From an uncultured bacterium (GTDB lineage: Bacteria; UBA8481): DNA of 64,000 nt. Made by a program: the position numbers and the translations under genes. Below, one piece after another: positions 6,672-21,468 of the stretch (the first letter of the stretch is position 1; each line of letters begins with the position of its first letter). The stretch spans positions 1-64,000 of the forward strand of contig CAZCME010000008.1 of the NCBI GenBank assembly GCA_964499705.1, read 5' to 3'. The notes beneath the pieces are model-generated. The model had not been told where the DNA came from and searched no databases. It saw only the letters and a list, made by a program, of their open reading frames with translations.

Positions 6672-8330
6672 TCAGGCGGGATCCGTCCACATATCGTGTG
6701 ATTTTATAAGAGCTGCCATGCGGTCGTAGGCTTCCTTGATGGGGATGCCTTTCTCCACGCAATCGTATCCCTTGTAGAGATTGATCTTACCGGGCGCTCC
6801 GCCGACAAATCCGAAGTCGGCATCGGCCATCTCACCGGGGCCGTTGACGATACAGCCCATCACGGCGATCTTGACGCCCTTCAGATGCGAGAATCGCCTT
6901 TTGACAAGCTGAGTCACCTCGGGAAGATCGAAGAGCGTCCGGCCGCAGGATGGACAGGCAATGATCTCGACACGGGAAATGCGCGTCAGGGAATTCTGGA
7001 GAATACCGATCGCGAGATTATGCCGGGTCTCCGGAGTCATCGCGCCGGCGGCATCCGCCTGAATCTCCACGGCATCCCCGTATCCCTCGATGAGCGGGAC
7101 TCCGACAGCCACCGCGGCGGCGAGCGCGGGATCGGCATTCCCCACGTGCTTGTACGACAGGATAACAGGAGCGGCTCCGATGTGGGGGATGACGCGGCGG
7201 ACAAAATGAATGGAGGTCGCGGGATCGGTGATCACGAGGCGATAGACATGGGATCCATCCGTCGCCAGGTTGTCTCCCGGAATCCATTTTTCATCCTGAT
7301 ACAAGTCGATGATGCCGCGATACTCGGCCGGATTCGCTTCCACGGGAATATCGTCTCCTTTTGCCGTCACGATATAATCGCCGCAGATCCGGACAGGATT
7401 GGCTCCGCCGATGATACCATGCGCATCCGTGGTTCTCCGGGGCGTGAGCGGGCGAATCTCCGACATCGGGCCGAAAGAGTCGTAATGAAAAAGAGCCGCC
7501 AGTTCGCGCGCGACGGGAATCTCATCCTCGGGCGGCTCGGCCAGAGAAACGCGGATCGTATCACCGATCCCATCCGCGAGGAGCGCTCCGATTCCGACAG
7601 CGGAACGGATCCGGCCGTCCTCCCCTTCACCCGCTTCCGTAACCCCGAGATGAAACGGATAATTCATGTTCTCCTTGTCCATCGCGATCGCAAGCAGGCG
7701 GTAGGCCTGAACCATGACACGCGGATTGGAGGCCTTCATCGAGAGAATGATATCGTGGTAATCGAGATCGCGGGCTATACGGACATATTCCAGAGCGGAC
7801 TCGACCATCCCCTCCGGAGTATCTCCATAGCGGCACATGATTCGATCGGAGAGAGAACCGTGGTTGGTGCCTATCCTGACGGCGATGCCGCGGCTCTTCA
7901 TCAACGTATACAGCGGGGTCACCTTCTCGCGTATGCGATCGATCTCCGCGTTGTAAGCTTCATCGGAAAAGTCGAACGACTGGCCAGCCTTATGGTCGGC
8001 GAAATTCCCCGGATTGATCCGGACTTTATCCGCGTGCTTGGCGGCTTCCATCGCGGCGGCGGGAACAAAATGAATATCCGCGACGATAGGAGTCGTGACA
8101 CCCTGCTCCGCGAGCCGCGACTTGACGGCCGCGAGAAGCGCGGCATCAGGAACCTTGGGAGTGGAAATACGGCTGATCTCGCAACCGGCCTGCTGGAGAC
8201 GAACGCACTCGGCGACGGTGCCGTCGACATCCTGCGGAGGCGCCGTCGTCATCGACTGAAGGCGGATCGGATTCTCCGCGCCGACCCCTACGCTGCCCAC
8301 GCGAACCTCGCGCGTCCTTCGGCGCATCAT
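6672..8330 (-). CDS. ispG: (E)-4-hydroxy-3-methylbut-2-enyl-diphosphate synthase, long form with insertion domain
   Basis: RLQSMTT, VADIHF, KVRINPGN, RIGTNHGSLS, HLGVTEAG, GDTIRVSL, IACPSCGR, AVMGCIVNGPGE. Confidence 0.97.
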   Translation of the reverse strand: MMRRRTREVRVGSVGVGAENPIRLQSMTTAPPQDVDGTVAECVRLQQAGCEISRISTPKVPDAALLAAVKSRLAEQGVTTPIVADIHFVPAAAMEAAKHADKVRINPGNFADHKAGQSFDFSDEAYNAEIDRIREKVTPLYTLMKSRGIAVRIGTNHGSLSDRIMCRYGDTPEGMVESALEYVRIARDLDYHDIILSMKASNPRVMVQAYRLLAIAMDKENMNYPFHLGVTEAGEGEDGRIRSAVGIGALLADGIGDTIRVSLAEPPEDEIPVARELAALFHYDSFGPMSEIRPLTPRRTTDAHGIIGGANPVRICGDYIVTAKGDDIPVEANPAEYRGIIDLYQDEKWIPGDNLATDGSHVYRLVITDPATSIHFVRRVIPHIGAAPVILSYKHVGNADPALAAAVAVGVPLIEGYGDAVEIQADAAGAMTPETRHNLAIGILQNSLTRISRVEIIACPSCGRTLFDLPEVTQLVKRRFSHLKGVKIAVMGCIVNGPGEMADADFGFVGGAPGKINLYKGYDCVEKGIPIKEAYDRMAALIKSHDMWTDPA

Positions 8331-9856
8331 TTCTGGCGGGACTCCCTCATGATGTCATCCACCTTCTGGAACCCGATGATGCGGCCGAGATCGTTCCAGG
8401 TGATGAAGACAACGAGCGTGAGCAGCCCGGCGATGCCGACCTTGATGAATCGCTCCATCGCCTTCGGCGAGAGCGGCTTCCTGGCCATGATCTCATAGAG
8501 GAAGAAGATGAAGAGCCAGCCTCCGTCGAGGAGCGGATACGGGAAGAGATTCACGACGCCGAGATTGACGGATATGAGCGCGAGGAAGTAGATGAGCTGC
8601 ATGATGCCGCCCTCGCGCATCTGCGAACCGGACGCCTGGGCGATGCCGATCGGGCCGGAGAGAAGCTTGGCGGATACTTCGCCGGAGACGAGCTTAATGA
8701 GGGTGTCGACGATGAGCTTACCGAGGCGCGCCGTCATGAAAACGCCCGATACCACGGCTCGTACGGGTCCCTGCGGGACCTGCTTCATGACGGGCGAAAT
8801 ACCGATCGCGGCGAAGCTCTCGATGCCGCCGTCGGGTTTGGGAGCGTGAACCGTCTTCGGAGCAACCTCGATGGTCATCTCCTTTCCGTCTCTCACGATC
8901 AGCGCCTGCTGAGGAATGTTCGCAACCTTCCATGTCTCCTCGGGCCAGATCTTCTGAAGAGGCGGACGAAGGAACGAGGGGAACCAAATAGACCACCACC
9001 GTTCCTGTCGCTCCACGGTCTCCTCGCCCAGCGGCGCACCGCGGATGGCCATGGCGAGATCGCTCCACTGCGTGAGCGGCTTGCCCGCGAACTGGACGAG
9101 CCTGTCGCCGGGTTTCAGGCCCGCAAGATCGGCGGGACTTCCCTCGGTCATCTGGCCGATGACAGGATCGACCCACGGATCAAGACCAAGCATGCCATTG
9201 CCCATCATCATGTCATCGACGGCCACCTGGACCTTGACAAGCCACGGCAGATTCTCCGGGTATTTCCGGGGTATCGGCGTGGCCTTCACTTCGATATTTT
9301 CGCCGCCACGATCGATGCCGAGCGTGACAGGACGACCGATAGCGGCGCGTTCCATCCGCTCGATGTCATCCCATGAGGCCACCTTCTCGCCGTCGATCGA
9401 TTCGATGACGTCACCCACACGGACGACATCGGCGAGTTTTTCCGGGACACCGCCGACCTTCGGCATGAACGCGGGGGATTCCGGGCCGACGAGAAAGATG
9501 AATACGCAGAGCACGAAGCCGAGGATGATGTTGGCGATCGGGCCGGCAGCGATGATGATCGCGCGCTGCCAGACGGGCTTGGAGGGAAATTCATCCGGCG
9601 CGCCAGCGTGCTGCTCGGTGGGATCCTCGCCGGCCATCTTGATATAACCGCCGAGCGGAATCCAAGAGAGACAGTATTCCGTGCCGTTGTATGTCTTCGA
9701 CCAGATCCGCTTGCCGAATCCGATGGAGAACGTGAAGACCTTGACGCCGAACCGTTTGGCAAAATAGAAGTGGCCCAGCTCGTGAAAGAAGATGGCCGGA
9801 CCGATGACGATGGCGAAGGCGAAGAGCGTTGAAGCCAATTTGTAGATGTAATCCAT
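8327..9856 (-). CDS. rseP: RIP metalloprotease RseP (M50) with two PDZ domains
   Basis: HELGH, IPLGGYIKM, AGPIAN, two PDZ-like segments, GPIGI, NLFPYPLLDGG; located between dxr and ispG. Confidence 0.95.
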   Translation of the reverse strand: MDYIYKLASTLFAFAIVIGPAIFFHELGHFYFAKRFGVKVFTFSIGFGKRIWSKTYNGTEYCLSWIPLGGYIKMAGEDPTEQHAGAPDEFPSKPVWQRAIIIAAGPIANIILGFVLCVFIFLVGPESPAFMPKVGGVPEKLADVVRVGDVIESIDGEKVASWDDIERMERAAIGRPVTLGIDRGGENIEVKATPIPRKYPENLPWLVKVQVAVDDMMMGNGMLGLDPWVDPVIGQMTEGSPADLAGLKPGDRLVQFAGKPLTQWSDLAMAIRGAPLGEETVERQERWWSIWFPSFLRPPLQKIWPEETWKVANIPQQALIVRDGKEMTIEVAPKTVHAPKPDGGIESFAAIGISPVMKQVPQGPVRAVVSGVFMTARLGKLIVDTLIKLVSGEVSAKLLSGPIGIAQASGSQMREGGIMQLIYFLALISVNLGVVNLFPYPLLDGGWLFIFFLYEIMARKPLSPKAMERFIKVGIAGLLTLVVFITWNDLGRIIGFQKVDDIMRESRQK

Positions 9857-9925
9857 GATTATGTAATCATCATCCTTCGCCCTGCTGGATAGACGGGGTC
9901 TCCTGAGGTTTTATTCGGACCTTAT

Positions 9926-11119
9926 TCAACCGGCGATCAGGCTGCCGGCCTCTTTCCTGGCCCATGCGTCCGCGTCGTACACATCCGCTTCCGTTTCAAC
10001 GGGATGGGGGGTATGCGCCGCGATCGTCCGCTGAATTATACCAGAGATGGCGCCGAAGGAGATCTTTTTTTCGAGGAAGGCGCCGACGGCGATCTCGTTC
10101 GCCGCATTAACCACGGCGGGAGCCGTGCCTCCTCTGGCCAGCGCCTCGCATGCGACCAGGATGAGCGGAAAGGCCGCATGATCCGGCTGTTCGAACGTCA
10201 ATGCTCCCAGGCGGGTCAGATCCAGAGGGGACTGGAAATTGCCGCCAGGAAGGAGCGCCCGCTGAATCGGAAGGCGCATGTCGGGCGGCGCGAGCTCGGC
10301 GACGACAGAACCATCGGAATGCTGCACCATGGCGTGGATGATGGATTGCGGATGCACGATCACTTCAATCTTCGACGCAGGCAGTTCGAACAGGAAATGT
10401 GCCTCGATGATTTCGAGACCCTTGTTCATGAGCGTCGCGCTGTCGATGGTGATTTTCGGACCCATGCTCCACGTCGGATGATTGAGCGCTTCCTCGACAG
10501 TGACATTGTCGAAAGTTCCTTTCGCCCTGCCTCGAAACGGCCCGCCGGAAGCGGTAAGATACACCCTGCGAATCTCCCTGCCCGTTCTCCCGCGCATGCA
10601 GGAGACCAGAGAGGAGTGCTCCGAATCGATGGGGCGGATCGCGACCTTGCGCTCCGCGGCGCGGCGCATCACGAGTTCGCCCGCCATCACGAGCGATTCC
10701 TTGTTGGCGAGCGCAATGTCGTTCCCGCCATCGAGCGCACCCAGGGTCACTTCCAAACCGGCGGCACCGACGACGGCATTGACGACGATATCGACATCCT
10801 CCTCGGCGGCCAGCGCCCTCAAGGCTCCCACGCCCGATGGCATGCTCGTCGTGGATTTCGCGAGCGCGGTCCGAGTGACTCCCAGATCCCGCGCCATCTT
10901 CATGAGCTCCGCCTCGTTACTGCCCGCTGCGAGCGCGACGACGCGCAGGCGATCCGGATTGGCGCGCACGATATCGATCGTGCTTTTTCCGATGGAGCCG
11001 GTGCAACCCATGACAGCGAGGCGGAGAGGCTTTGCCTGGCGCATGCGGAGATGATCGAGGAGGGAGACCTCATGATCACGACCCGGCTGCGAGTAGAGCG
11101 ATTCGAGGAGCTCGTTCAC
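9926..11119 (-). CDS. dxr: 1-deoxy-D-xylulose-5-phosphate reductoisomerase
   Basis: GCTGSIG, LANKESLV, PIDSEH, LTASGGPFR, HPTWSMGPKITIDSATLMNKGLE, NAANE. Confidence 0.97.
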   Translation of the reverse strand: MNELLESLYSQPGRDHEVSLLDHLRMRQAKPLRLAVMGCTGSIGKSTIDIVRANPDRLRVVALAAGSNEAELMKMARDLGVTRTALAKSTTSMPSGVGALRALAAEEDVDIVVNAVVGAAGLEVTLGALDGGNDIALANKESLVMAGELVMRRAAERKVAIRPIDSEHSSLVSCMRGRTGREIRRVYLTASGGPFRGRAKGTFDNVTVEEALNHPTWSMGPKITIDSATLMNKGLEIIEAHFLFELPASKIEVIVHPQSIIHAMVQHSDGSVVAELAPPDMRLPIQRALLPGGNFQSPLDLTRLGALTFEQPDHAAFPLILVACEALARGGTAPAVVNAANEIAVGAFLEKKISFGAISGIIQRTIAAHTPHPVETEADVYDADAWARKEAGSLIAG

Positions 11120-11144
11120 AGGCGAAGTATGAAGACCTTCCTGC

Positions 11145-11798
11145 TCATCTCAAGGTATCCAGGTAAGCCAAGCCGTCCTTGGCGGACTGGTAATCCGGCG
11201 AGATCGTGAGGACCTCGCGAAAGAGCTGCGACGCGGAGCCTTTCCGGTTCAGCCGGGCATAGCACCAACCGCGCATGGTGAGCGCTTCCAGGTCGAGGGG
11301 ATACAGGGCGGAGACGCGCGAATAATTTTCTCCCGCTTCCGAATAGCGCCCCATGTTATAGAGCGCGTAACCGAGACGGGAGCGCGACGAATAATTCTGC
11401 GTATCGCGCTTCAACGCTTCACGGGATGAAGCCGCGAGGGCGGACCAATCGGTCATCAGGAGGAACTGATACTGCTGATAGACGAGCGGTTCGACGGCAT
11501 CGGGCTTGAGAGCGGCCGCCGAACCGTACAGGCGCGCCGCCTCCTGATACTCTCCCATCATTCCCTTCAGGTAACCCAGACGCATGACCACAACGTAATT
11601 GTCCTCATTCCCCTGCAGAACCTGGACAATGGCCTGGAAGGCATCCAGATATTTCCCGGCCGCCTCGGACGCGTAGGATGCCTTGAAGGCATCGGCCAGC
11701 TTCGTGGAACTCTGAGCATGCCCGGGCAGTGAAAAGACGAGGAGCAACAGCAGCGGACAGGCGCGGCGCAGACACGGAATCGAAAGCAATCGGCTCAT
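11145..11798 (-). CDS. Secreted tetratricopeptide-repeat protein
   Basis: Signal peptide ending GHA-Q; TPR-like helices (LGYALYNMGRYSEAGENY; RGWCYARLNRKGSA); GGGAGG SD. Confidence 0.85.
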   Translation of the reverse strand: MSRLLSIPCLRRACPLLLLLVFSLPGHAQSSTKLADAFKASYASEAAGKYLDAFQAIVQVLQGNEDNYVVVMRLGYLKGMMGEYQEAARLYGSAAALKPDAVEPLVYQQYQFLLMTDWSALAASSREALKRDTQNYSSRSRLGYALYNMGRYSEAGENYSRVSALYPLDLEALTMRGWCYARLNRKGSASQLFREVLTISPDYQSAKDGLAYLDTLR

Positions 11799-11848
11799 GA
11801 AGAATTCCTCCCACAGGATCTAGACTGATATCAACCGAATATTAAACA

Positions 11849-11956
11849 CCAATTCAGACGAATTGGGCATGCAAAGATCGGTAAAATTTTTACCAACTTT
11901 TTTCGCCAACTTTTCCGAAATAAGGCCAACTTCTGAAGAAACAACGTTGCTATAAT
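11849..11956 (+). promoter_or_regulatory. Divergent promoter region with extended -10 and operator-like palindromes
   Basis: TGcTATAAT at 11948-11956, 10 nt before the PqqD ATG; palindromes CCAATTC-N4-GAATTGG (11849-11866) and GGTAAAA-T-TTTTACC (11880-11894); CCAACTT direct repeats at 11893, 11906 and 11926. Confidence 0.6.
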
Positions 11957-11966
11957 CAACCTCGAT

Positions 11967-12221
11967 ATGAACGATTCCAGGCAACGCCTCAAGGGGCTGG
12001 CACTATCCGACACCGGCTTTCTCTTCGATCCGATCACGGGCCACATGTACACGCTGAACCGAACAGGGAGCGAGATTCTGAAGTGGCTGCGGGATGGAAT
12101 CCCGGAGCATTTTCTTCCCGGGCGCATCGCGGAGCTCTTCGACGTCACGGAAGACGAAGCCGAGCGGGACTGCGCGGCTTTTCTCAAGCTCCTGCACGAG
12201 TTCAGGCTGCTCGAAGCCTGA
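11967..12221 (+). CDS. Stand-alone PqqD-family protein (RiPP recognition element-like)
   Basis: 84 aa; LALSDTGFLFDPITGHMYTLNRTGSEIL ... IAELFDVTEDEAERDCAAFLKLLHEFRLL, the PqqD winged-helix pattern. Confidence 0.85.
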   Translation: MNDSRQRLKGLALSDTGFLFDPITGHMYTLNRTGSEILKWLRDGIPEHFLPGRIAELFDVTEDEAERDCAAFLKLLHEFRLLEA

Positions 12222-13342
12222 TGAACCGCCCCCTGACCGTGGCGGTGTCGGGCATGAACGCGGGCGAAAGTCCACAGCCCGGACCGGCGATCGCGCGAAG
12301 CCTGCGCGAGGCGCCCGGATTCACCGAAGCTCCCTGCCACGGCCGCATCGTGGGGCTGCTGTATGACGCCATGGAAAGCGGCGTCTATTCCGGGGATCTC
12401 CTGGACGCGGCGTATGTCGTGCCTTATCCCTCCTCGGGATCCGACGCACTCGCGGCGCGCATCGAACACATCCATGCCCGGCATCCGATCGATGTCATCC
12501 TCCCGACGCTGGACGCGGAGCTTCCCGCCTACATCCGGCTCACTCCCTTTCTCCGTGAACTCGGAATCCGAATGTTTCTTCCGACGGAAGAGCAGCTCGA
12601 CGCCCGGAGCAAGTCCCGGCTTGCGGATTTCGCGCGGAAGATCGGAATCGACTCGCCCCGGCAGAAACTTGTCTCAAGTCTCGACCTCGTTCCTTCGGCG
12701 TTCGCGGAATTCAACACCCGCGGAGCGGGCGCGATGGTGAAAGGCGTCTTCTACGAAGCAGCGCACGCCGCGACTTCAGCGGACGCGGTGAAGATCGCGG
12801 CGAAGATCGCGGTGAAGTGGGGCATGCCGGTGATCCTGCAGGAGAAGATTCTCGGCGAGGAGTATGACCTCGCGATGGTCGGCGACGGAGAGGGCGGGAT
12901 GATCGGCGCGGTGGCGATCAAGAAGATGGCTCTGACGGAGAAGGGCAAGGCCTTCGGCGGCATGACGATCTCCGACAAGGAGCTTTTCGCGATCGGCCGG
13001 AAGTTCATCGAGAGGACGAAGTGGCGCGGGCCGCTGGAGATGGAATTCGTCAAAGCCACAGGCAACGGCGCTGCCAGCGGCGTGGCCGCGGGAAGCGCCG
13101 CCGGCGACAACAAGTATTACCTGATCGAGATCAATCCACGCTTTCCGGCGTGGATCTATCTCGCCTCGCAGGTTGGACAGAACCTGCCGTGGGCCGTCGT
13201 CCGGATGGCTCTCGGGGAGGAAATCGACGAGTTCGCAACGTATGAGCCGGGACGATTCTTCGTCCGGCACGCGGTCGACATCGTCGCTGACCTGGCGATG
13301 CTGGAACGACTCACCATGGAAGGAGAACTGCAGATCCGATGA
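12221..13342 (+). CDS. ATP-grasp ligase (carbamoyl-phosphate-synthase/carboxylate-amine ligase-like)
   Basis: IDVILPTLDAEL, MVKG, PVILQEKILGEEY, GPLEMEF, YLIEINPRFPAW. Start ATG 12221 overlaps the PqqD stop (TGATG). Confidence 0.9.
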   Translation: MNRPLTVAVSGMNAGESPQPGPAIARSLREAPGFTEAPCHGRIVGLLYDAMESGVYSGDLLDAAYVVPYPSSGSDALAARIEHIHARHPIDVILPTLDAELPAYIRLTPFLRELGIRMFLPTEEQLDARSKSRLADFARKIGIDSPRQKLVSSLDLVPSAFAEFNTRGAGAMVKGVFYEAAHAATSADAVKIAAKIAVKWGMPVILQEKILGEEYDLAMVGDGEGGMIGAVAIKKMALTEKGKAFGGMTISDKELFAIGRKFIERTKWRGPLEMEFVKATGNGAASGVAAGSAAGDNKYYLIEINPRFPAWIYLASQVGQNLPWAVVRMALGEEIDEFATYEPGRFFVRHAVDIVADLAMLERLTMEGELQIR

Positions 13343-14736
13343 ACAAGCTGACTTATGAACGACCCGCGATCATCCGGCAGGTCGATGGATTGATGAACAA
13401 GGTGGGGCGTCCCGCTCCGGCTCGACCCTTCGACGAGATCGACGGCGTCCGGATCGACGATCTCGTCGCCCAGTACGGATCTCCGCTCTTCGTGTTTTCG
13501 GAGCGCACGATCCGGCACCGGATCCGGGAAGCGATGCAGACCTTTTCGGTGAGGTACCCGCGCGTCCAGTTCGCGTGGTCGTACAAGACAAACTACCTCG
13601 ACGCGATCTGCCGGATTTTCCACCAGGAGGGCTCGATCGCCGAAGTCGTCTCGGAGATGGAATATCTCAAGGCCCGGCGCAACGGCATGCTCGGATCACA
13701 GATCATCTACAACGGCCCCTATAAAACCGAGGCCTCATTGAAGCAGGCGGCGGCCGAAGGCGCGATGATACACGTCGACAACTTCGAGGAGATCGCGGCA
13801 TTGGAAGCGGTATCGGACGAGCTGGGGAAGAAGCTGGACGTCGGCATCCGGATCAATCTCGATTCCCAGATCTATCCGCAGTGGGACCGCTTCGGATTCA
13901 ACCTGGAGAGTTATCAGGCGTATCACGCCGTGAAGAGGATGGTATCAGGCGGCAAATTGAACCTCGTCACATTCCATTGCCATCTCGGGACGTTCATCCT
14001 GGACCCCTGGGCCTACGCGCGCGCGATCGTGAAGCTCCTGGATTTCGCGGCCTATCTCCGCGCCGAATTCAAGATCGTGATCCGCAACATCAACATGGGC
14101 GGAGGTTTCGCCTCCTCGAACACGCTCCACCAGCAATATCTGCCGGGCGAGCAGGTTTCTCCGAGCCTGGCGCAGTATGCGGACGCGATTTCGTCCGTGC
14201 TGATGTCCTCGCCGATCGCGGACCAGTTGAACCTCATCCTGGAATCCGGGCGTTCGCTTGTCGACGAAGCCGGATCGCTCATCTCCACGGTACGCGCGAC
14301 GAAGCGGCTGGCGTCGGGCCGACGCGCCATTGTTTTGGATGCGGGAGTCAACCTGCTCTTCACCGCATACTGGTACAAGCTTCAGATCCTGCCGGTGCAG
14401 CCGTTCCAGGGGCTATCGGAAGAAACGACCGTATACGGCCCGCTCTGCATGAACATCGACTGTGTCCGGGACGGCGTGGTTCTACCGGACCTTCAGAAAG
14501 GGGATCGCGTCGCGATTCGTCCCGCGGGCGCCTACTGCTTCACGCAATCGATGCAATTCATCGCGCTGCGGCCGGCCTGCATCCTGTTGGGAATGAACGG
14601 CGAGATCGACTGCATCCGACGGGCTGAGGTGCTCGAAGACCTCGTGGCATGCGAATCGCTGCCGGATCGGCTTGCCGGAGAACCGGCGCATCAGCAAGAT
14701 ACGAGAACATCCCGGGTCATTTCCATCAGTCGGTGA
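13339..14736 (+). CDS. PLP-dependent fold-type III decarboxylase (diaminopimelate/ornithine decarboxylase family)
   Basis: YGSPLFVF, WSYKTN (PLP lysine), IYNGPYK, HCHLGT, INMGGGF, LESGRSLV, YGPLCMNID, AGAY; ATGA overlap with the ATP-grasp gene. Confidence 0.9.
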   Translation: MNKLTYERPAIIRQVDGLMNKVGRPAPARPFDEIDGVRIDDLVAQYGSPLFVFSERTIRHRIREAMQTFSVRYPRVQFAWSYKTNYLDAICRIFHQEGSIAEVVSEMEYLKARRNGMLGSQIIYNGPYKTEASLKQAAAEGAMIHVDNFEEIAALEAVSDELGKKLDVGIRINLDSQIYPQWDRFGFNLESYQAYHAVKRMVSGGKLNLVTFHCHLGTFILDPWAYARAIVKLLDFAAYLRAEFKIVIRNINMGGGFASSNTLHQQYLPGEQVSPSLAQYADAISSVLMSSPIADQLNLILESGRSLVDEAGSLISTVRATKRLASGRRAIVLDAGVNLLFTAYWYKLQILPVQPFQGLSEETTVYGPLCMNIDCVRDGVVLPDLQKGDRVAIRPAGAYCFTQSMQFIALRPACILLGMNGEIDCIRRAEVLEDLVACESLPDRLAGEPAHQQDTRTSRVISISR

Positions 14737-16991
14737 GACGCATCGGAACATTCGCTTCACATCTTTTCAGGGCCACGCTGGAAAGCTATGCGTCGCTCCT
14801 GTTCGCGAGCGGTGCGCGCTGCGGCGGCGCGATCATGGCGATAACGTTCATCAACCCGCGCCTCGGGCTTGGCGGGCTGATCGGCGCCCTGGCAGGCAAC
14901 GCGGCGGCACGGGGTTTCTCATATCCGCGCGAGATGGTGGCGGGCGGCATCTACGGCATTTCACCGCTCCTGACGGGACTGGCGATCGCGTGTTTCCACC
15001 CGGCGGGACTCGCGGCGTATCCGCTCATCATTCCCGCCGCGCTCCTGACCATGACGTTATCCACGCTCTTATCGGATCGCTGCTACAAGAATTTCCGCGT
15101 GGGCTCTCTCTCGCTCGCCTTCGCGATCGTGGCGACCGTAGTCTCCTGGCGCGTCCTCGACCGCCCCGTCTTCGGACCCCCTCCCGTCACGGATGCGAAC
15201 TGGGTGGATGTTTTCTTCAGCTCCATGGGCGCCATCATCTTCATCCCCGCGCCGCTCGCCGGGCTCGGTCTCTTTCTCGTCATCCTTTTCCATTCGCGAA
15301 CACTGGCGGTGCTGGCGATGGGAGGATTTGCACTGGGCGCGGGATTATTCATGGCGATGGGCGGATCGCATGCGGATTTGATCCACGGGATGGTGGGCCT
15401 CAATTTCATCCTGACCGCGATGGCCGTCGGCGGTGTCTTTCTCCTATCCGGCCCGTACGCCACGATCCATGCGGCCGGCGCCGTGATGATGACTTCCCTC
15501 GTGGCGCTCGGCATCAACAAGATCCTGGCGCTCCTGGGGCTTCCGGTTTTCTCGTGGCCCTTCAACATCGCCACCATCCTCTGGATCGGCGCGTTGAACC
15601 TGAGGACGATCGAGACGAGGCCCCGGAGCACGTGGGGGCTTTCCGGATCCCCGGAGAACATGGCCGCGCAGGTGGATCTCCATTCTCGCGCCGCCGTCGC
15701 GGAATTCATGCCGAGGCTTCCGATCATCGGCGAATGGACGGTGACGCAGGGAATCGAGGGCAAGCCCACACATCGACCTCCGTGGTCCTACGCGATCGAT
15801 TTCGAAGTGATGGACGAGTCCGGATTTCCGTTTCGGACCTCAGGGATTGTTACGCGGGGAAGCGCGGGCGGGGAAACCGGGCACGACCAGCCGAGGGATA
15901 ACCCCGGCGAGCGGCTGGAGAGTTATTATTCGTACGGCGCGCCGGTCCTGGCGGTCGCGGACGGCGTTGTCGTCCTGGCGGTCTCTGGGATCTTCGACAA
16001 CGCTCCGGGTTCCTCGAACATCAAGGACAACTTCGGCAACCAGGTGATCATCCGGCACGCGGAGCAGATCTATTCCGTCTATGCGCACTTGAAATATCTC
16101 TCCGTGCGAGTGAAGGCGGGCGATGTCATCCGGGCAGGGCAGGTGATCGCCCAATGCGGGTCATCGGGGCGCTCGCCTCGCCCGCATCTTCACTTCCACA
16201 TCCAGGCAAGCAACATCGTCGGATCTCCCACGTTGCCCTTTGTCTTCTCCCAATTCACGATCCGGAATCCAGAAGGGAATCTCCGCTTCATCGAAGCCGG
16301 TCTGCCCGAGCAGTTCGACCGCATCGCATCGACATCCTCCGTGCGGGACAGCCGACCGGCGCCCTATTTTTCGCCCGGCGCGTACTGGCGTTTTCGTGTC
16401 CGGCGAGGTCAACGGGAAACGGAAGAGGCCTGGAAGATGGATATCGACCTCTGGGGCGGCATCCGGCTGAGATCATTCGAGGCACGGCCCGCGCTCGACT
16501 CGATGAGGGCGATACCAACCGAGCATCCTGTCGCGGAAGCCGTCTGGAGAATCGACGGACGCGGGATGACGGCGATCGAATTCAAGGGCGCCCGAACCAG
16601 CGCTCTCTACGCGCACTTCCGCGCGCATTCCCGCGTGCCGACTCATATATCACCGCGCTTCACATGGAGCGATCGGCCCGGCGCCGATCACACGATGCCG
16701 AAAGTCCTGTCCGTGCTCCGCGGAGTCCTGCTTCCGTTCACAACGCTCCGGGGTGAGGAAATCCACTTTTCGACAACCGTGGAAAGCAACCTGACCCGTA
16801 TCATCAGCGAGAGCGGCCGAAATCGCACGATCACGGAGTGGAGCGAAACAGGGGAACTTGCGAGATTGGAATACATCTCGAATGGCAGACAGGATCTGAC
16901 GGCGGAACGGATCGAGGCATCAGGAGAAGTCGAAGTGCTCAACCGTAGCGGGACATATCATCCCAAAGATGATAATGTCCCTGCATGCTGA
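14733..16991 (+). CDS. Urea-transporter-like membrane domain fused to an M23 metallopeptidase domain and an uncharacterised C-terminal domain
   Basis: About ten hydrophobic segments with GIYGISPLLTGLAI / GLNFILTAMAVGG / LPVFSWPFN (UT family pattern); then VTQG..H....YAIDF, PVLAVADGVV, GNQVIIRH, YAHL, V..GD....GQ.I..CG.SGRS..PHLHF (M23). GTG 14733 overlaps the upstream stop. Confidence 0.85.
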   Translation: MRRIGTFASHLFRATLESYASLLFASGARCGGAIMAITFINPRLGLGGLIGALAGNAAARGFSYPREMVAGGIYGISPLLTGLAIACFHPAGLAAYPLIIPAALLTMTLSTLLSDRCYKNFRVGSLSLAFAIVATVVSWRVLDRPVFGPPPVTDANWVDVFFSSMGAIIFIPAPLAGLGLFLVILFHSRTLAVLAMGGFALGAGLFMAMGGSHADLIHGMVGLNFILTAMAVGGVFLLSGPYATIHAAGAVMMTSLVALGINKILALLGLPVFSWPFNIATILWIGALNLRTIETRPRSTWGLSGSPENMAAQVDLHSRAAVAEFMPRLPIIGEWTVTQGIEGKPTHRPPWSYAIDFEVMDESGFPFRTSGIVTRGSAGGETGHDQPRDNPGERLESYYSYGAPVLAVADGVVVLAVSGIFDNAPGSSNIKDNFGNQVIIRHAEQIYSVYAHLKYLSVRVKAGDVIRAGQVIAQCGSSGRSPRPHLHFHIQASNIVGSPTLPFVFSQFTIRNPEGNLRFIEAGLPEQFDRIASTSSVRDSRPAPYFSPGAYWRFRVRRGQRETEEAWKMDIDLWGGIRLRSFEARPALDSMRAIPTEHPVAEAVWRIDGRGMTAIEFKGARTSALYAHFRAHSRVPTHISPRFTWSDRPGADHTMPKVLSVLRGVLLPFTTLRGEEIHFSTTVESNLTRIISESGRNRTITEWSETGELARLEYISNGRQDLTAERIEASGEVEVLNRSGTYHPKDDNVPAC

Positions 16992-17392
16992 ATTTCCAAA
17001 TTTCCTGCCGGCGCGCGATCCTAATTTTCGTATCCGCCTGTTTTTTCGCTTCCTGTTCCACGGGTTCGCGAATATCAAAAACTTCCTTTACAGCGGCCGA
17101 TCGAACGATCGCGGTCTCCAAGAGCGAATCCTTCGTGCTTAGGCTCGAATCCAATCCATCCGAAGGATATCGATGGGTATGGGCGCAGCCACTCGACTAC
17201 ACGGTCCTCGCCCTCGGTAACGAAAGTTTCAGCGCGCCCGAGACAACTTCCTCGGGAACGGGCGGCTACCAGGAATGGCACTTCCGGGCCGTCGATGCCG
17301 GGTCAGCCGTCATTTCATTGAAATACATCTTGCTGGGATCGAAGGACACAGTACCGATCCGGACGCAGGAAACCCTTGTGACGGTGAAATAG
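16985..17392 (+). CDS. Protease inhibitor I42 (chagasin) family lipoprotein
   Basis: Lipobox-like FASC; LESNPSEGYRW and GTGG...W.F.A...G...I.L.Y chagasin motifs. Confidence 0.85.
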   Translation: MLNFQISCRRAILIFVSACFFASCSTGSRISKTSFTAADRTIAVSKSESFVLRLESNPSEGYRWVWAQPLDYTVLALGNESFSAPETTSSGTGGYQEWHFRAVDAGSAVISLKYILLGSKDTVPIRTQETLVTVK

Positions 17393-17591
17393 GCGTTCCT
17401 GAAGCGGAATGCGGCCCTGAGCTTCTGCGGGACTTGCCATCCATGCCGAAAGCATGATTAGTTCACACATGAATGGCAGGAGCATGGTGATTAAGTTCAC
17501 TCTTTTCCCCCATTGACCCTCCGATCGCCGCGTTTGATAATTCTCACAGTGCACCAGCAGCACCATCGTCGTCAACAAAGAGGAGCAGGAT

Positions 17592-20519
17592 ATGAAGAGA
17601 TTTCTGGCGTTCATCCAGGTTATTGCGCTCACGCTGTCGGTCGCGCCCACTTCGTCTTCCGCGGCGACGTTCCGCAACGAGCATCCGGCCAAGGTCATTG
17701 TCGGCCACAACGACATGACGACGATAGGCGTCTCGGGCAGCGATGCTGACAAGGTCGATTTCAACGCGAATGCGAACGTCGCGATCACCGCCGACGGGAA
17801 ACTCCTTGTCGCCGATCGCCAGAATCACCGCATCCTCGTTTTCAACGCGATTCCCGCGACAAGCGGAGCGGCGGCGGACTACGCGATCGGCCAGGATGAC
17901 CTGACGTCGAAATTCATTCATCGAGGAAATCTCGACAATGACAACAACCCTGCGCCCTGCGCATGGGGACTGTATGAACCGATCTCGGTTGCCGTCGGTC
18001 CCGCCGGAGAAATTGCCGTCGCCGACCGCCAGAATCAGCGCGTTCTCATCTGGAAGACTTTACCGACGAAGGACGAGGTTACCGCGAAAAAGCCCGCCGA
18101 TCTCGTTCTCGGCCAGAAGAACTTCGAGACGCGAGGCGGAAACCAGAACGCATGGGGATTGTCCGATCCCGAGGACGTTGCCTTCCACGGCAAATCGCTC
18201 GTTGTCGCCGATCGCGAGGGAAACCGCGTCCTGATCTGGAAGGATTACACGACGGCATCCAACGGCCAGGAAGCCGACATCGTTCTCGGACAGCCGGATC
18301 TGACGACGTTCAACCAGCCGGAAGACCAGGGCGGAATCCGCGCCATCCGCGCGGTGGCGGTCGGTCCGAATGGCGCTCTTCTCGCGAGCGGCCTCCAGGA
18401 CTGGGTCTATATCTGGAAATCCTTTCCCGCCGCGAACAATCAGAAGCCGGACGTTGTGCTGGGAGAACACCCGATCGCGGACATCGCAAAATCCGACAAG
18501 ATGGTCTTCAACGATCCGCACGGCCTTGCGATCTCGAATGCCGGGCAACTTGCGATCGGCGACAAGGGTCACGGACGCGTCCTGATCTATAATTCGATTC
18601 CGACTTCGCCGGACGCGCTTCCCGACATCGTCCTTGGAGCCACAGATCATACGATCGACGCGACAACAGGATCCGCGCCCCGGTCTCTGGCAGCCAACGC
18701 CACGACCTACGACAATCGCTACCTCGGCAGCCCCACCGGCCTCGAATGGGGGCCGAACGGCATTCTCGTTGTCACCAGTGTCAGCGGCGAGTGGGTGAAG
18801 ATTTTCGATCCGGAGTTCTTCGTCGATCTCCCGACCTACGCGGGCAAACCAGAGATCTCCCCGAAGGACGCGCTCGTTCCGGCCGGCGATCCGATCCAGC
18901 TTGCCGTGAAAAAGGGTCAGCCCCCGTACCGATTCGCAATGGTTCCGAACAATCAGCCGGAAGGATACTGCCCGACGACCCTGGACGCGGAGAAAGGCAT
19001 CATCATGCCGGGGCTCTTCACAATTCACGACGGAACGAATCGCACCGCTCAGCTCTTCACCGTCACCGATGCCAACGGCGATGTCGATACCGCCTCGATC
19101 CTGGTATTTCCGAAAGTCCAGATGCGCGCGATTTCCGACCTCTATCCGAACACCACCGCATATCTGGAAGCGTGGGGAGGGCTCAATGCCTACGGCGAAC
19201 CTTTCACGTTCACCTTCGCCGGGAACGCATCAGGCGGTTCGATCCTGCTGCCCGATCCCGAAGCGTACCGTTATCAGACGATGTATCAATCGGGTTCGAA
19301 TGCGGGCAAGGATGTGATCGAGGCGGCGGACAAGATGGGAAACAAGGCGCGCATGGAAGTCACCGTCGGCGCTCCGCCGGTTGTCTCCCCTGTCGATCCG
19401 AGCGTCGAAGCCAGGGGAACGATACAGTTCGACTTTGAAGGAGGCATTTTCCCGCGATCTATTCCCTCAGATCAGGGTCAACGTAGCTGGATGTTTGTAG
19501 AGAACAACAGCGGTGGATCCATAGGGCACTACGACGGCATATACACCGCGGGGCTGCGCGGCGGCAAGGACATCATCGCCCTGCATGAGCCGAATGGTTA
19601 TCTCGTCAGGACGACGGTAACCGTTACGCAAGTCGCGCCCGAACTGACTTCCGCCGTCAATGCGTCCGGACACATTTCCGGCGGCGCCGCCTTCAAGCTT
19701 GCCGGCAGGAATTTCGATCCAAACGCGACCGTGACCGTCGGAGGTTCCGGAGCCATTGTGCAAAGTGTCAACGAATATGGAACCGAGCTCACCGCCCTGG
19801 CGCCGGCGACCACCGAGGCAGGAAAGAAAGACATCATGGTCACCACCGGCGGCGGAACCGCGACGCTGGTCGAAGGATTCGAATACGTGAACGTGATTCC
19901 CGCGGAACAATTCATCAGGAACCTGTATCCGGCTCTTCTCGGCTTTGCGGCGGAAGCTTCGTCCGTAGCCGACGGAGTCGCGAAGTTAAATACCGGAACG
20001 CCGAGAAAAAAGATCGCTCTCGACATCATGACCGGTGTGATTTTCAGGCAGCAGCAGATCCAACGATTCTACGAGGCGTATCTGAGACGAAGGCCCAGCA
20101 CGCAGATCGAGTTCTTGACCGCGATGTCCAAGTTGCCCTCGACAGGCGTGAATTTCACGGGCCTTGAAGCTTTTATCCTCAGTTCGAATGAATATTTCTC
20201 TTCGAGAGGCGGCGGGACGGCGCGAGGATATGCGGTTTCTCTTATCACGGATCTTCTCGGGAGACCGCCGCAAAACGAGGGTGAAATCGTGAGCGTACAG
20301 GGGAGCGTCGCGGCCAGGGGCAGGAGCTGGGCCGTACACAATCTCCTGAAAAGTACCACCTCCCGCGCGCTGCGGTACCAGACAATGTACAACAAGCATC
20401 TGGGACGAAGCGCGACCGATCAGGAAATCACAAAATGGATGTCTCAATACTACACTCAGGAATACGAGATTCTTGCTGAGATTCTAGCGACGGACGAATT
20501 CGCGAGCCGGCGTCCCTGA
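17592..20519 (+). CDS. Secreted NHL-repeat protein with Ig-like/IPT(TIG) domains and a DUF4214-like helical C-terminus
   Basis: Signal peptide; repeats of LxVADRxNxRVLIW...ADxVLGQ; G.NF....TVTVGG...LTA.AP (IPT); FIRNLY..LLG / FYEAYLRR..S.EYF / Y..HLGR C-terminal repeats; AGGAG SD. Confidence 0.85.
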   Translation: MKRFLAFIQVIALTLSVAPTSSSAATFRNEHPAKVIVGHNDMTTIGVSGSDADKVDFNANANVAITADGKLLVADRQNHRILVFNAIPATSGAAADYAIGQDDLTSKFIHRGNLDNDNNPAPCAWGLYEPISVAVGPAGEIAVADRQNQRVLIWKTLPTKDEVTAKKPADLVLGQKNFETRGGNQNAWGLSDPEDVAFHGKSLVVADREGNRVLIWKDYTTASNGQEADIVLGQPDLTTFNQPEDQGGIRAIRAVAVGPNGALLASGLQDWVYIWKSFPAANNQKPDVVLGEHPIADIAKSDKMVFNDPHGLAISNAGQLAIGDKGHGRVLIYNSIPTSPDALPDIVLGATDHTIDATTGSAPRSLAANATTYDNRYLGSPTGLEWGPNGILVVTSVSGEWVKIFDPEFFVDLPTYAGKPEISPKDALVPAGDPIQLAVKKGQPPYRFAMVPNNQPEGYCPTTLDAEKGIIMPGLFTIHDGTNRTAQLFTVTDANGDVDTASILVFPKVQMRAISDLYPNTTAYLEAWGGLNAYGEPFTFTFAGNASGGSILLPDPEAYRYQTMYQSGSNAGKDVIEAADKMGNKARMEVTVGAPPVVSPVDPSVEARGTIQFDFEGGIFPRSIPSDQGQRSWMFVENNSGGSIGHYDGIYTAGLRGGKDIIALHEPNGYLVRTTVTVTQVAPELTSAVNASGHISGGAAFKLAGRNFDPNATVTVGGSGAIVQSVNEYGTELTALAPATTEAGKKDIMVTTGGGTATLVEGFEYVNVIPAEQFIRNLYPALLGFAAEASSVADGVAKLNTGTPRKKIALDIMTGVIFRQQQIQRFYEAYLRRRPSTQIEFLTAMSKLPSTGVNFTGLEAFILSSNEYFSSRGGGTARGYAVSLITDLLGRPPQNEGEIVSVQGSVAARGRSWAVHNLLKSTTSRALRYQTMYNKHLGRSATDQEITKWMSQYYTQEYEILAEILATDEFASRRP

Positions 20520-20655
20520 CATCACCGTTGCGAAGGGAACGACTGGGGATAGCCGTTCCTGTCGCAGCGAAGCGCGCGCAGGAAGCCTGGCGATTCAAGA
20601 AGTCCCGGGCCCTTGAAATAGCGAAATGAAAAAAGGTAAGATATGACGCAGGGGG

Positions 20656-21468
20656 ATGACTATCATGACAATTTTATCGCATCGTTTTTTTAGACCGGGA
20701 AACTGCGGCCGCGCGTCGGTCCTGTCCTTTCTTGCCTGCATCATGCTCGGCTCAGCAGCCCATGCGAGCGACGTGACGACGTTCAAAAGCGGCAGGGACA
20801 CGCTCCACGCGGAACTGTTCCTTCCCGACACGGGAAAAGCTCCATGGCCGGCCGTCATCGTCATCCATGAATGGTGGGGAGTGAACGACCAGGTGCGCGA
20901 TGAAGCCAAATCGTTCACGAAGCTCGGTTACGCGGCTCTCGTCATCGACCTCTATCGCGGACGATCGGCGAGGGATACCGACGAAGCGCACGAGCTTTCG
21001 CGCGGCCTCCCGGAAGACAGGGCGATCGGAGATCTGCGCGCGGCGTTCCGGTATCTGCGGTCCCGCCGGGACATCCGTCGGGAGGCCATCGGATCGGTCG
21101 GCTATTGCCTGGGCGGAGGATATTCCCTGGCGCTGGCCACCGCGGAGCCAAACCTGGCGGCCTGCGCGGTCTATTACGGGCGGCTCATCACGGAGGAGGC
21201 GCGGCTCAGGAAGATCAAGGCTCCGGTCATCGGATTCTTCGGCGAGGACGACCGCGGCATTTCACCCTCCAGCGTCCGGGAATTCGAAGCGCGGATGAAG
21301 CGGTTGAAGAAGAAGATCATCGTAGAGATCTATCCGGGAGCAGGGCATGCGTTTGCCAACGCGACGAGGTCATCCTACCGGCCGGGAGCCGCGGGCGATG
21401 CACGGAAAAAACTGGAGGAGTTTTTCGGGAAGTATCTCCCGGCCAGGAAGAGATCAATTCCGAAGTAA
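20656..21468 (+). CDS. Dienelactone hydrolase family protein (probably exported)
   Basis: VIVIHEWWGVN, GYCLGG nucleophile motif, YYG, FGEDD, YPGAGHAFAN. Confidence 0.92.
   Translation: MTIMTILSHRFFRPGNCGRASVLSFLACIMLGSAAHASDVTTFKSGRDTLHAELFLPDTGKAPWPAVIVIHEWWGVNDQVRDEAKSFTKLGYAALVIDLYRGRSARDTDEAHELSRGLPEDRAIGDLRAAFRYLRSRRDIRREAIGSVGYCLGGGYSLALATAEPNLAACAVYYGRLITEEARLRKIKAPVIGFFGEDDRGISPSSVREFEARMKRLKKKIIVEIYPGAGHAFANATRSSYRPGAAGDARKKLEEFFGKYLPARKRSIPK

Follow-up and report, generated by a model that had tools for sequence, protein, structure and literature searches.

We analyzed a stretch of 64,000 nucleotides from an uncultured bacterium of the UBA8481 lineage (GenBank assembly GCA_964499705.1, contig CAZCME010000008.1, positions 1 to 64,000; hereafter, the window), and within it an operon of five forward-strand genes next to a divergent gene for a small secreted tetratricopeptide repeat (TPR) protein. 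The operon codes for a stand-alone PqqD-like protein of the RRE type (the recognition element of RiPPs, peptides that are made on the ribosome and modified after translation), an ATP-grasp ligase, a fold-type III pyridoxal 5′-phosphate (PLP) decarboxylase, a fusion of a urea-transporter (UT) channel domain with an M23 metallopeptidase (UT::M23) and a chagasin-family inhibitor (Table 1). The fusion gene, at 14733-16991 on the forward strand, comprises the UT domain, the M23 domain and a C-terminal domain of about 240 residues. In an earlier note, made from the sequence of this DNA, the five genes were described as overlapping one after another, and the junctions are exactly those given there: TGATG at 12219-12223 between the PqqD and ligase genes; ATGA at 13339-13342, a 4-nt overlap of the ligase and decarboxylase genes; GTGA at 14733-14736 between the decarboxylase and fusion genes; and ATGCTGA at 16985-16991, a 7-nt overlap of the fusion and chagasin genes. 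The GTG start at 14733 agrees with the N-termini of 33 homologues. The domain identities of the earlier note also hold, with support from Pfam and NCBIfam models and, for the ATP-grasp ligase, from a fold model. The operon is confirmed as real and tightly packed, and we found no published function for it.

Table 1. Features of the operon and of the DNA around it (positions in the window).
Feature	Position	Strand	Basis
ispG (GcpE), rseP (M50 and two PDZ domains) and dxr; isoprenoid/envelope housekeeping block upstream of the operon	6672-11119	-	Pfam
Small secreted TPR protein, 217 aa, N-terminal signal peptide	11145-11798	-	Pfam TPR_2, 52.4 bits
Control region, 168 nt, common to the TPR gene and the operon	11799-11966	.	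Putative regulatory role
Stand-alone PqqD-like RRE protein, 84 aa	11967-12221	+	PF05402, 43.5 bits (cut-off 23.4)
ATP-grasp ligase, 373 aa, carbamoyl-phosphate-synthase-like/ATPgrasp_Ter type	12221-13342	+	NCBIfam PRK12767, fold model
Fold-III PLP decarboxylase, 465 aa, FslC/BtrK type	13339-14736	+	Pfam Orn/DAP/Arg decarboxylase, 102 + 48.5 bits
Tail motif YERPAI, decarboxylase residues 6-11	13354-13371	+	Matches [YFW]xxPx[LIVMF]
UT-fold channel domain, residues 1-320 of the 752-aa fusion	14733-15692	+	PF03253, 142.7 bits
M23 metallopeptidase domain	15735-16232	+	PF01551, 73.9 bits; location predicted cytoplasmic
C-terminal domain of the fusion, ~240 aa, predicted open beta half-barrel, LolA/LolB/RseB-like	16266-16991	+	AlphaFold2 model
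Chagasin-family (I42) inhibitor, lipoprotein-like signal	16985-17392	+	PF09394, 61.2 bits (cut-off 27.2)
Secreted NHL/TIG/DUF4214 protein, 975 aa, downstream of the operon	17592-20519		Pfam

Conservation and distribution of the gene set

Relatives of the ligase are numerous (1769 among 7999 scored candidates) and occur in at least 597 genomes in a pattern scan with one genome per species. Gene content was tallied in the best 80 loci from other genomes, a locus being counted for a given gene only if it had room for it. The decarboxylase gene stood beside the ligase gene in 73 of 73 loci, the UT and M23 domains were found in 60/60 and 58/58, respectively, and a homologue of the small TPR gene lay 3′ of the fusion gene in 48 of 50. 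The PqqD profile matched in 76 of the 80 loci, three of the four misses being loci that end upstream (76/77 with room). According to the sequence records, the 80 loci belong to the Bacteroidota, Ignavibacteriota, Chlorobiota, Myxococcota, Desulfobacterota, Planctomycetota and Gammaproteobacteria. Cultured carriers named in records of the ligase searches are Ignavibacterium album, Draconibacterium orientale and Pendulispora rubella. The arrangement far exceeds chance, and the core of the system consists of the PqqD-like protein, the ATP-grasp ligase, the PLP decarboxylase, the UT::M23 fusion and the small secreted TPR protein. The co-occurrence in other genomes that the earlier note had named as a check is thereby borne out, and so is the partnership it saw between the operon and the divergent TPR gene; in most other genomes this gene lies 3′ of the operon on the same strand, and it is divergent in the window and in a genome of the same family (G003). 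The chagasin gene, which the note had also counted as a member, was found by tblastn in none of the 80 loci, and in G003 its place after UT::M23 is taken by an FGGY kinase gene; it is a local passenger, co-transcribed with the operon but not a member of the system.

The system is accessory and patchy. In an even draw of 301 genomes from the phylum to which the genome of locus L011 belongs, 27 carry the ligase, and the operon was found (E ≤ 1e-60) in 5 of 40 relatives and sampled genomes around the genome of the window. Its genes may also be dispersed. In G020, the PqqD, ligase and decarboxylase genes are followed by a two-component pair (L094), and UT::M23 lies on another contig (L196), next to genes for an ABC ATPase and a YHS-domain protein; in G041, the decarboxylase gene and a fusion of UT with a sirtuin (see below) are present together and the remaining genes are elsewhere in the genome. 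In locus L087, from a metagenome-assembled genome labelled Segetibacter, a gene annotated as '23S rRNA-intervening sequence protein' (9206-9571) lies between the ligase and decarboxylase genes and a GNAT (Acetyltransf_3) gene directly 5′ of the PqqD gene.

A variant of the operon, found in G026 and G042, has the UT domain fused to a CobB-type sirtuin in place of M23 (UT::SIR2). The sirtuin scores 241 bits against NF040867 (CobB), and its NAD site, catalytic His and four Cys residues are invariant in 22/22 sequences. The sirtuin-type operons of G026 and G042 carry in addition a degenerate paralogue of the ATP-grasp ligase (hhalign, 96.4%). UT::SIR2 lies directly 3′ of the decarboxylase gene in 8 of 8 loci, with both ATP-grasp genes in seven of them. 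The PqqD gene was detected in five of the six sirtuin-type loci with a ligase and upstream room, once by Pfam (L096) and four times by profile; at the sixth (L184), which was not among the profile-scanned loci, it was not detected by tblastn. Full-length UT::SIR2 occurs in 5 of 251 sampled genomes of the phylum to which the genome of L051 belongs, in all five directly after the decarboxylase gene and with both ATP-grasp genes upstream, and with PqqD in 4/4 with room. Among 120 listed relatives of UT::SIR2, 78 have both UT and SIR2 domains and eight of these also a GNAT domain; the three-part proteins (P0190 and P0192-P0198) are about 700-785 residues long. A metagenome scan with the UT::SIR2 alignment, the patterns of which came from the sirtuin part, returned 80 loci, in all of which the sirtuin stood alone and neither UT nor a ligase or decarboxylase gene was present. 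The exchange of M23 for a CobB-type sirtuin within one and the same operon is new, as are the predicted LolA-like fold after M23 and the motif in the tail of the decarboxylase, both described below.

The earlier note could not assign the operon to a described pathway, and we found no match either: the system is not described in the full-text literature searched, nor, supplements aside, in a survey of graspetides (PMC8939145) and one of RREs (PMC12710340). The anti-phage models of PADLOC gave no family for seven proteins, UT::SIR2 included.

Decarboxylase, ligase and PqqD-like protein

Judging from its scores and motifs, the decarboxylase is not the housekeeping LysA, an identity that the earlier note had named as one that would count against its reading. 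It scores 221.4 bits against TIGR01048 (LysA), under the cut-off of 297.9 (221.1 bits when the genome was searched with the model), and a separate lysA, on contig C15 of the same genome, scores 519.4 bits, over that cut-off. All of the 78 family members have the PLP lysine, K83. The two solved diaminopimelate (DAP) decarboxylases 2p3e and 1twi have an N-D-x-x-R-P and a C-E motif, which bind the far end of DAP; the first reads NLLFTA in the window, with Thr for the Arg of 'RP' in 77/78 members, and the second is CM in 78/78. The nearest solved relative is the N-citrylornithine decarboxylase FslC (7kh2; 190 bits, E 5.2e-55, residues 30-427), whereas the best DAP decarboxylase in the PDB reaches only 138 bits and BtrK (2j66/7ru7) about 103 bits; against the FslC model NF041039 the protein scores 212.9 bits, and the cut-off of 500 is not reached. 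FslC, BtrK and CtaF act on an amino acid that has been ligated by its side chain, which suggests that in the operon too ligation probably precedes decarboxylation. The earlier note had the decarboxylase make an amine that the ligase then attaches; with the DAP decarboxylase motifs gone and FslC and BtrK as relatives, the reverse order is likelier. The pairs CtaD/CtaF and BtrJ/BtrK are each formed by an ATP-grasp enzyme and a fold-III decarboxylase that work on tethered Asp or Glu, CtaD/CtaF iteratively (PMC7183216).

For the ligase, the Pfam match (26.9 vs 29.1) and all matches to NCBIfam PRK12767 remain below their cut-offs. Its model (pLDDT 89.7) has 2pn1 as best fold match (E 2.8e-17), followed by biotin carboxylase, carbamoyl-phosphate synthetase, glycinamide ribonucleotide synthetase and L-amino-acid ligases.

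These two enzymes could also make a small-molecule amide, of the siderophore, opine or polyamine-conjugate kind, as the end product of the operon, with PqqD as a structural adaptor and the UT fusion recycling or importing the compound. Because FslC works on a free small molecule, this stays a serious rival: FslC is the closest solved relative, the fold matches of the ligase include the L-amino-acid ligases RizA and BL00235, the distribution is that of an accessory trait, and in vibrioferrin synthesis PvsA and PvsE pair an ATP-grasp enzyme with a DAP-decarboxylase-like enzyme. However, a synthetase of the NIS type (siderophore synthesis independent of non-ribosomal peptide synthetases), a TonB receptor and the usual exporter are not among the Pfam-scanned neighbours, and the RRE, the peptide-type motif in the tail of the decarboxylase, a sirtuin of the protein-deacylase type and the periplasmic TPR protein and outer-membrane barrel are left unexplained. 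We consider this explanation unlikely.

The PqqD family is large (677 clusters at E ≤ 1e-10), and the top NCBIfam model for the protein of the window is lasso_PqqD_Strm (NF033530; 35.6 bits, under the cut-off of 70). Among the best 150 of 11635 matches, all of 67-153 aa, there was no PqqD fusion. Co-folding of the PqqD-like protein with the ligase gave a score of 0.45, against 0.00 for the best of three controls; of 157 solved complexes, 116 attain the mark used, and of 215 mismatched pairs, 2 do, and the range up to 0.60, in which our score falls, holds 18 of the 157 solved complexes and both passing mismatches. The result is a pass of the weak class, in which, according to the tool, wrong predictions outnumber right ones unless there is a good prior; the runs share at least 73% of their contacts, with a partner pLDDT of at least 85. 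Two further ideas about PqqD were rejected: that it serves through its C-terminus as a carrier like LysW, since the C-termini differ in length and residue, and that it is fused to TPR in L214 and L215, where the long frames are rich in Arg and come from read-through of high-GC DNA. A second, weaker PqqD-like match in the genome of the window (G000:C4:64241-64423, L203; E 7.4e-5) may belong to another RRE-dependent cluster.

A possible ligand for the RRE was found on the decarboxylase itself. Its N-terminal tail has the consensus M-x-K-x-x-Y-E-R-P-x-I ... N-K-F-G, after which come a variable linker and the usual first strand of the enzyme, and the pattern [YFW]xxPx[LIVMF] stands at one and the same column in 78/78 decarboxylases. 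All seven decarboxylases of sirtuin-type operons have it as well (YETPEL, YQAPAL, WETPEL, YAAPVL, YEAPRL, YATPEL and YEAPDF). Tail residues 3-12 are as conserved (0.70) as the body of the enzyme (0.70), and the linker (residues 25-33) less so (0.44); the lysA product of the same genome has no such tail or motif. YxxPxL is a conserved motif of lasso leader peptides (PMC10368454), and is reported for leaders of Actinobacteria beside an account of the contacts between leader and RRE (PMC6784204). We therefore infer that the tail is a candidate ligand of the PqqD-like RRE.

The motif also bears on the RiPP-like pathway envisaged in the earlier note. In such a pathway the RRE would present a ribosomal precursor whose gene lies elsewhere in the genome, this peptide would be decorated by the ligase and decarboxylase, and M23 would remove the leader before export. 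In favour of it, the RRE domain is genuine, the nearest models are the lasso B1 chaperones, and an RRE, an ATP-dependent amide-forming enzyme, a peptidase and a membrane protein together mirror the logic of lasso biosynthesis; in G041, moreover, a radical-SAM/SPASM gene (L183:6893-8101, contig C44) is divergent from the decarboxylase-UT::SIR2 pair. The note had seen no precursor gene nearby, and a comparison of 2186 small open reading frames (ORFs) within about 8 kb, at 86 loci and in the window, bears this out, in that no ORF of 18-100 aa is shared across loci besides PqqD and shadow frames. Moreover, the leader-like motif sits on the decarboxylase, in 85/85 sequences; a sirtuin, which is no leader peptidase, takes the place of M23 in eight loci; and fold-III decarboxylases need a free alpha-amino acid. 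Because of these points we regard a RiPP with a remote precursor as improbable. The L183 set, made of the decarboxylase, UT::SIR2, barrel and TPR genes, has no adjacent PqqD or ligase gene, and an AT-rich stretch of 1.5 kb with no long ORF lies alongside.

The channel fusion, its envelope partners and the flanking DNA

The UT domain is a complete one. Its profile aligns with the channel dvUT (3k3f) over the full length (174 bits; 7-338 against 13-334 of 340), and the two LP..(S/T).PF signatures and the C-terminal PE motif are kept. Each of the 60 fusions found is encoded by a single ORF, with a length of 706-743 aa in 59 cases and 802 aa in one, and the UT domain of the fusion is the only one in the genome. 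Proteins of this kind are routinely labelled 'urea transporter', 'MepM/NlpD' or 'NAD-dependent deacetylase'. Judged by the sequence, the first of these labels is weak: the domain scores 81.2 bits against TIGR03441 (yut; cut-off 274.6), no urease gene was found by Pfam near the operon in the window, and the two pore glutamines, which belong to the urea recognition motif (PMC11589576), are S21 and I171 in the protein of the window, with Gln in 26/34 and 28/34 family members, respectively. A homologue search with the UT region alone returned five proteins only, too few for a survey of other fusions.

The M23 domain has kept its metal-binding and catalytic residues, with H347, D356, H442, H452, H485 and H487 invariant in 34/34 sequences. 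The earlier note described M23 enzymes as cutting peptidoglycan cross-links or Gly-rich peptides; an explanation of the operon along the first of these lines is a periplasmic modification of the wall, with M23 as the trimming enzyme and the cytoplasmic enzymes making an amine for wall precursors. The best NCBIfam matches of M23 are indeed peptidoglycan peptidases, although far under their cut-offs (Pgp3, 52.2 bits, cut-off 300; MepM, 44 bits), LolA-like folds are typical of periplasmic proteins, and the TPR partners are periplasmic. Nevertheless, the position of the domain speaks for the other side of the membrane. M23 comes after the C-terminus of a complete dvUT-like domain, and UT-B has both termini in the cytoplasm and the loop that joins its two halves outside the cell (PMC9097623). 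Past the last hydrophobic segment, 40 columns contain on average 6.7 Lys/Arg and 3.8 Asp/Glu residues per sequence, a comparison based on charge counts alone because the ten UT helices were not resolved by hydropathy. Finally, a sirtuin, or a sirtuin and a GNAT domain, stands at the place of M23 in 78 of the 120 listed proteins. As a sirtuin needs NAD+ and a GNAT enzyme needs acyl-CoA, the C-terminal end of UT would face the cytoplasm, from where M23 could not reach peptidoglycan. The fused enzyme is thus more plausibly a cytoplasmic amide-cutting enzyme than a wall hydrolase, the cutting of amide bonds being the feature that M23 and the sirtuin have in common, and modification of the wall is, given these points, hardly credible.

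The sirtuin-type fusions could also be read as pointing to regulation, with the ligase and decarboxylase placing a reversible, aminoacyl-derived mark on some protein, at a lysine or an acidic residue, and the channel-bound M23 or sirtuin erasing it in response to a small solute sensed by UT. The sirtuin belongs to the CobB type, which removes acyl groups from protein lysines; the UT::SIR2::GNAT proteins (eight of the 120 listed) join eraser and writer domains; and AraC or two-component regulators adjoin several of the operons. We nonetheless find such a mark very improbable, as it would leave the periplasmic TPR protein and the outer-membrane barrel unexplained, no target protein is evident, and the tight translational coupling of the genes is more like that of a metabolic assembly line.

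The domain that follows M23 was modelled with a pLDDT of 79.7 and a pTM of 0.75. Foldseek matched the model to LolA (2w7q_B; E 2.4e-4, TM 0.32-0.41), and VIA-align to ApoB (Z 10.1), vitellogenin (Z 9.6) and LolA (2w7q_B; Z 8.9, rmsd 3.4, 124 residues aligned), values moderately above a background in which models with no clear match usually have a best Z of 7-8. The predicted fold is most like LolA/LolB/RseB and the lipid-binding barrels.

The small TPR protein has a weak match to the TPR region of PgaA (20.9 bits). In many loci of Bacteroidota, Chlorobiota and Myxococcota there is an additional protein of 380-500 aa with a signal peptide, weak TPR and barrel-like last strands; in the genome of the window, a profile of seven such proteins matched TPR regions only. 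In one UT protein (L197:6267-7751, G041:C32) the two homologous halves are separated by an inserted TPR segment, and its gene adjoins a weakly matching AMP-binding-family gene and a type II methylase gene. As the loop at this position is extracellular in UT-B (PMC9097623), the insertion, a single case, suggests that the TPR partner may dock on the outer face of the channel.

The 168-nt region between the TPR gene and the operon contains three direct repeats of CCAACTT, starting at 11893, 11906 and 11926, which are the sole forward-strand copies in the window and form a candidate operator; they are absent from the corresponding gap of G003 (L093). An extended -10-like element, TGcTATAAT (11948-11956), ends 10 nt 5′ of the ATG of the PqqD gene, before which no Shine-Dalgarno sequence is evident, an arrangement that suggests a leaderless transcript or one with a very short leader. 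A scan of the same gap for the sigma-70 consensus found no site, terminator-like sites were not in excess of shuffles in a consensus scan, and no Rfam family matched over 9500-21000. Downstream of the operon, the gene for the secreted NHL/TIG/DUF4214 protein is preceded by a promoter-like site of its own (17513-17541, 10/12 matches). Neither the NHL protein nor dxr was found by tblastn in the 80 loci of other genomes.

A proposed pathway and its relation to known systems

The explanation that accounts best for the system as a whole, to which we give a probability of about 0.4, is that of an envelope-spanning pathway in which a ligase and a decarboxylase act on a tethered amino acid, are coupled through the RRE and the tail, and have their product released by an amidase bound to a channel. 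The ATP-grasp ligase would join an amino acid by its side chain to a partner, leaving the alpha-amino-acid end free, and the decarboxylase, like FslC, BtrK or CtaF, would then strip the alpha-carboxyl group from the tethered amino acid. The PqqD-like RRE would grip the YxxPx[L/I/V] tail of the decarboxylase and so couple decarboxylase and ligase with no need of a separate precursor peptide; the tail may also carry the intermediate. At the cytoplasmic end of the UT channel, the amidase (M23 with its LolA-like domain, or the CobB-type sirtuin) would release the decarboxylated product. This would exit by way of the channel or alongside it, reach the periplasmic TPR protein and, in most phyla, pass from there to an outer-membrane barrel.

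Several observations weigh against this pathway. The fold match of the ligase is generic, does not discriminate between classes of substrate and indicates no peptide-ligase type. Pfam found no carrier protein (acyl or peptidyl carrier, PP-binding family) among the genes of the operon, either in the window or in the scanned loci, which leaves the analogy to butirosin (Btr) and closthioamide (Cta) without its tether, and the decarboxylase is closer by sequence to FslC, with its free small-molecule substrate, than to BtrK. The contact between PqqD and the ligase is a weak-class prediction, and the tail may, instead of binding the RRE, belong to the structure of the enzyme. The pore of a UT channel is one for urea-sized solutes, and with both glutamines lost in the window the passage of anything is uncertain. 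By profile search, the genome of the window and its family have no outer-membrane barrel. Lastly, the operon is split in G020 and G041, and physical coupling is therefore not obligatory.

A bolder variant, and a long shot, is that the operon codes for a protein-primed synthase and exporter of a polyamide. A lysine of the tail, just upstream of the YxxPxL-like motif, would serve as primer for the repeated addition of Asp or Glu by the side chain, with the decarboxylase trimming each unit, as CtaD/CtaF do on a carrier; the unbranched, nylon-like beta- or gamma-peptide would be cut by the amidase and threaded through the amide-recognising pore of the urea channel to the TPR protein and the barrel, an export route resembling that of secreted polymers. 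M23 enzymes of the Gly-Gly type and sirtuins acting on acyl-lysine have as known substrates side-chain-free amides, -CH2-NH-CO-CH2-.

If the proposed pathway is right, a recognition domain of the RiPP type would hold the tail of an enzyme in place of a precursor peptide, and genome mining would have to interpret stand-alone RREs differently. A urea-channel fold would have been recruited to let out the product of a biosynthetic pathway, and the amidase at its opening, M23 or sirtuin, would be interchangeable. That product, whether an amine, an amide or an oligo-amide, destined for the envelope of many environmental diderms, is a directly testable question.

Parts of the pathway have counterparts in known systems. 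FslC of rhizoferrin synthesis (FslA/FslC, or FigA/FigC) has, like the decarboxylase of the operon, 'CM' and lacks the Arg of the 'RP' of DAP decarboxylases; its first 28 residues fall outside the alignment, so that the comparison excludes the region of the tail motif. No NIS synthetase of the IucA/IucC type was found among the genes of the window or the Pfam-scanned neighbours, the ligase of the operon being an ATP-grasp enzyme. The likeness to the lasso B1 RRE lies in the match to a PqqD model and in the conserved Y/F/W-x-x-P-x-L/I/V/M/F motif, which in lasso systems is on the leader of the precursor and in the operon at the N-terminus of an enzyme; a B2 protease, a lasso cyclase and a core peptide were not found in the operon, and Pfam detected no transglutaminase-like or Asn-synthase-like gene. 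With dvUT and UT-B the channel domain shares full-length homology, with the difference that the UT domain of the operon is always fused to an amidase module. In the export of synthase-dependent exopolymers, periplasmic TPR proteins and outer-membrane barrels are paired, as in PgaA, BcsC and AlgK/AlgE; the operon has the periplasmic TPR protein and, in many loci, the barrel-like protein, but no glycosyltransferase or polymer synthase.

The closest parallels in chemistry are closthioamide (CtaD/CtaF/CtaE) and butirosin (BtrJ/BtrK/BtrI), in which, as in the operon, an ATP-grasp enzyme adjoins a decarboxylase of the Orn/DAP/Arg family. In these pathways the substrate is tethered to a carrier, whereas the operon has a PqqD-like RRE in that place and no thioester chemistry is evident; their aminoglycoside and thioamide genes are absent from the operon, and they have no counterpart of its channel-amidase fusion and envelope partners. 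If the proposed pathway is right, the operon would represent a third form of an ATP-grasp/decarboxylase amide chemistry that is so far known from these two alone, and one that needs no carrier protein. The overall logic may match that of LysW/LysX/LysK, where an ATP-grasp enzyme tethers an amino acid to a small protein, enzymes modify it and a metallopeptidase releases it, although the fold match of the ligase shows no preference for RimK/LysX. LysW is a zinc-ribbon protein with a conserved C-terminal Glu; in the operon, the carrier would be the tail of the decarboxylase, held by the RRE.

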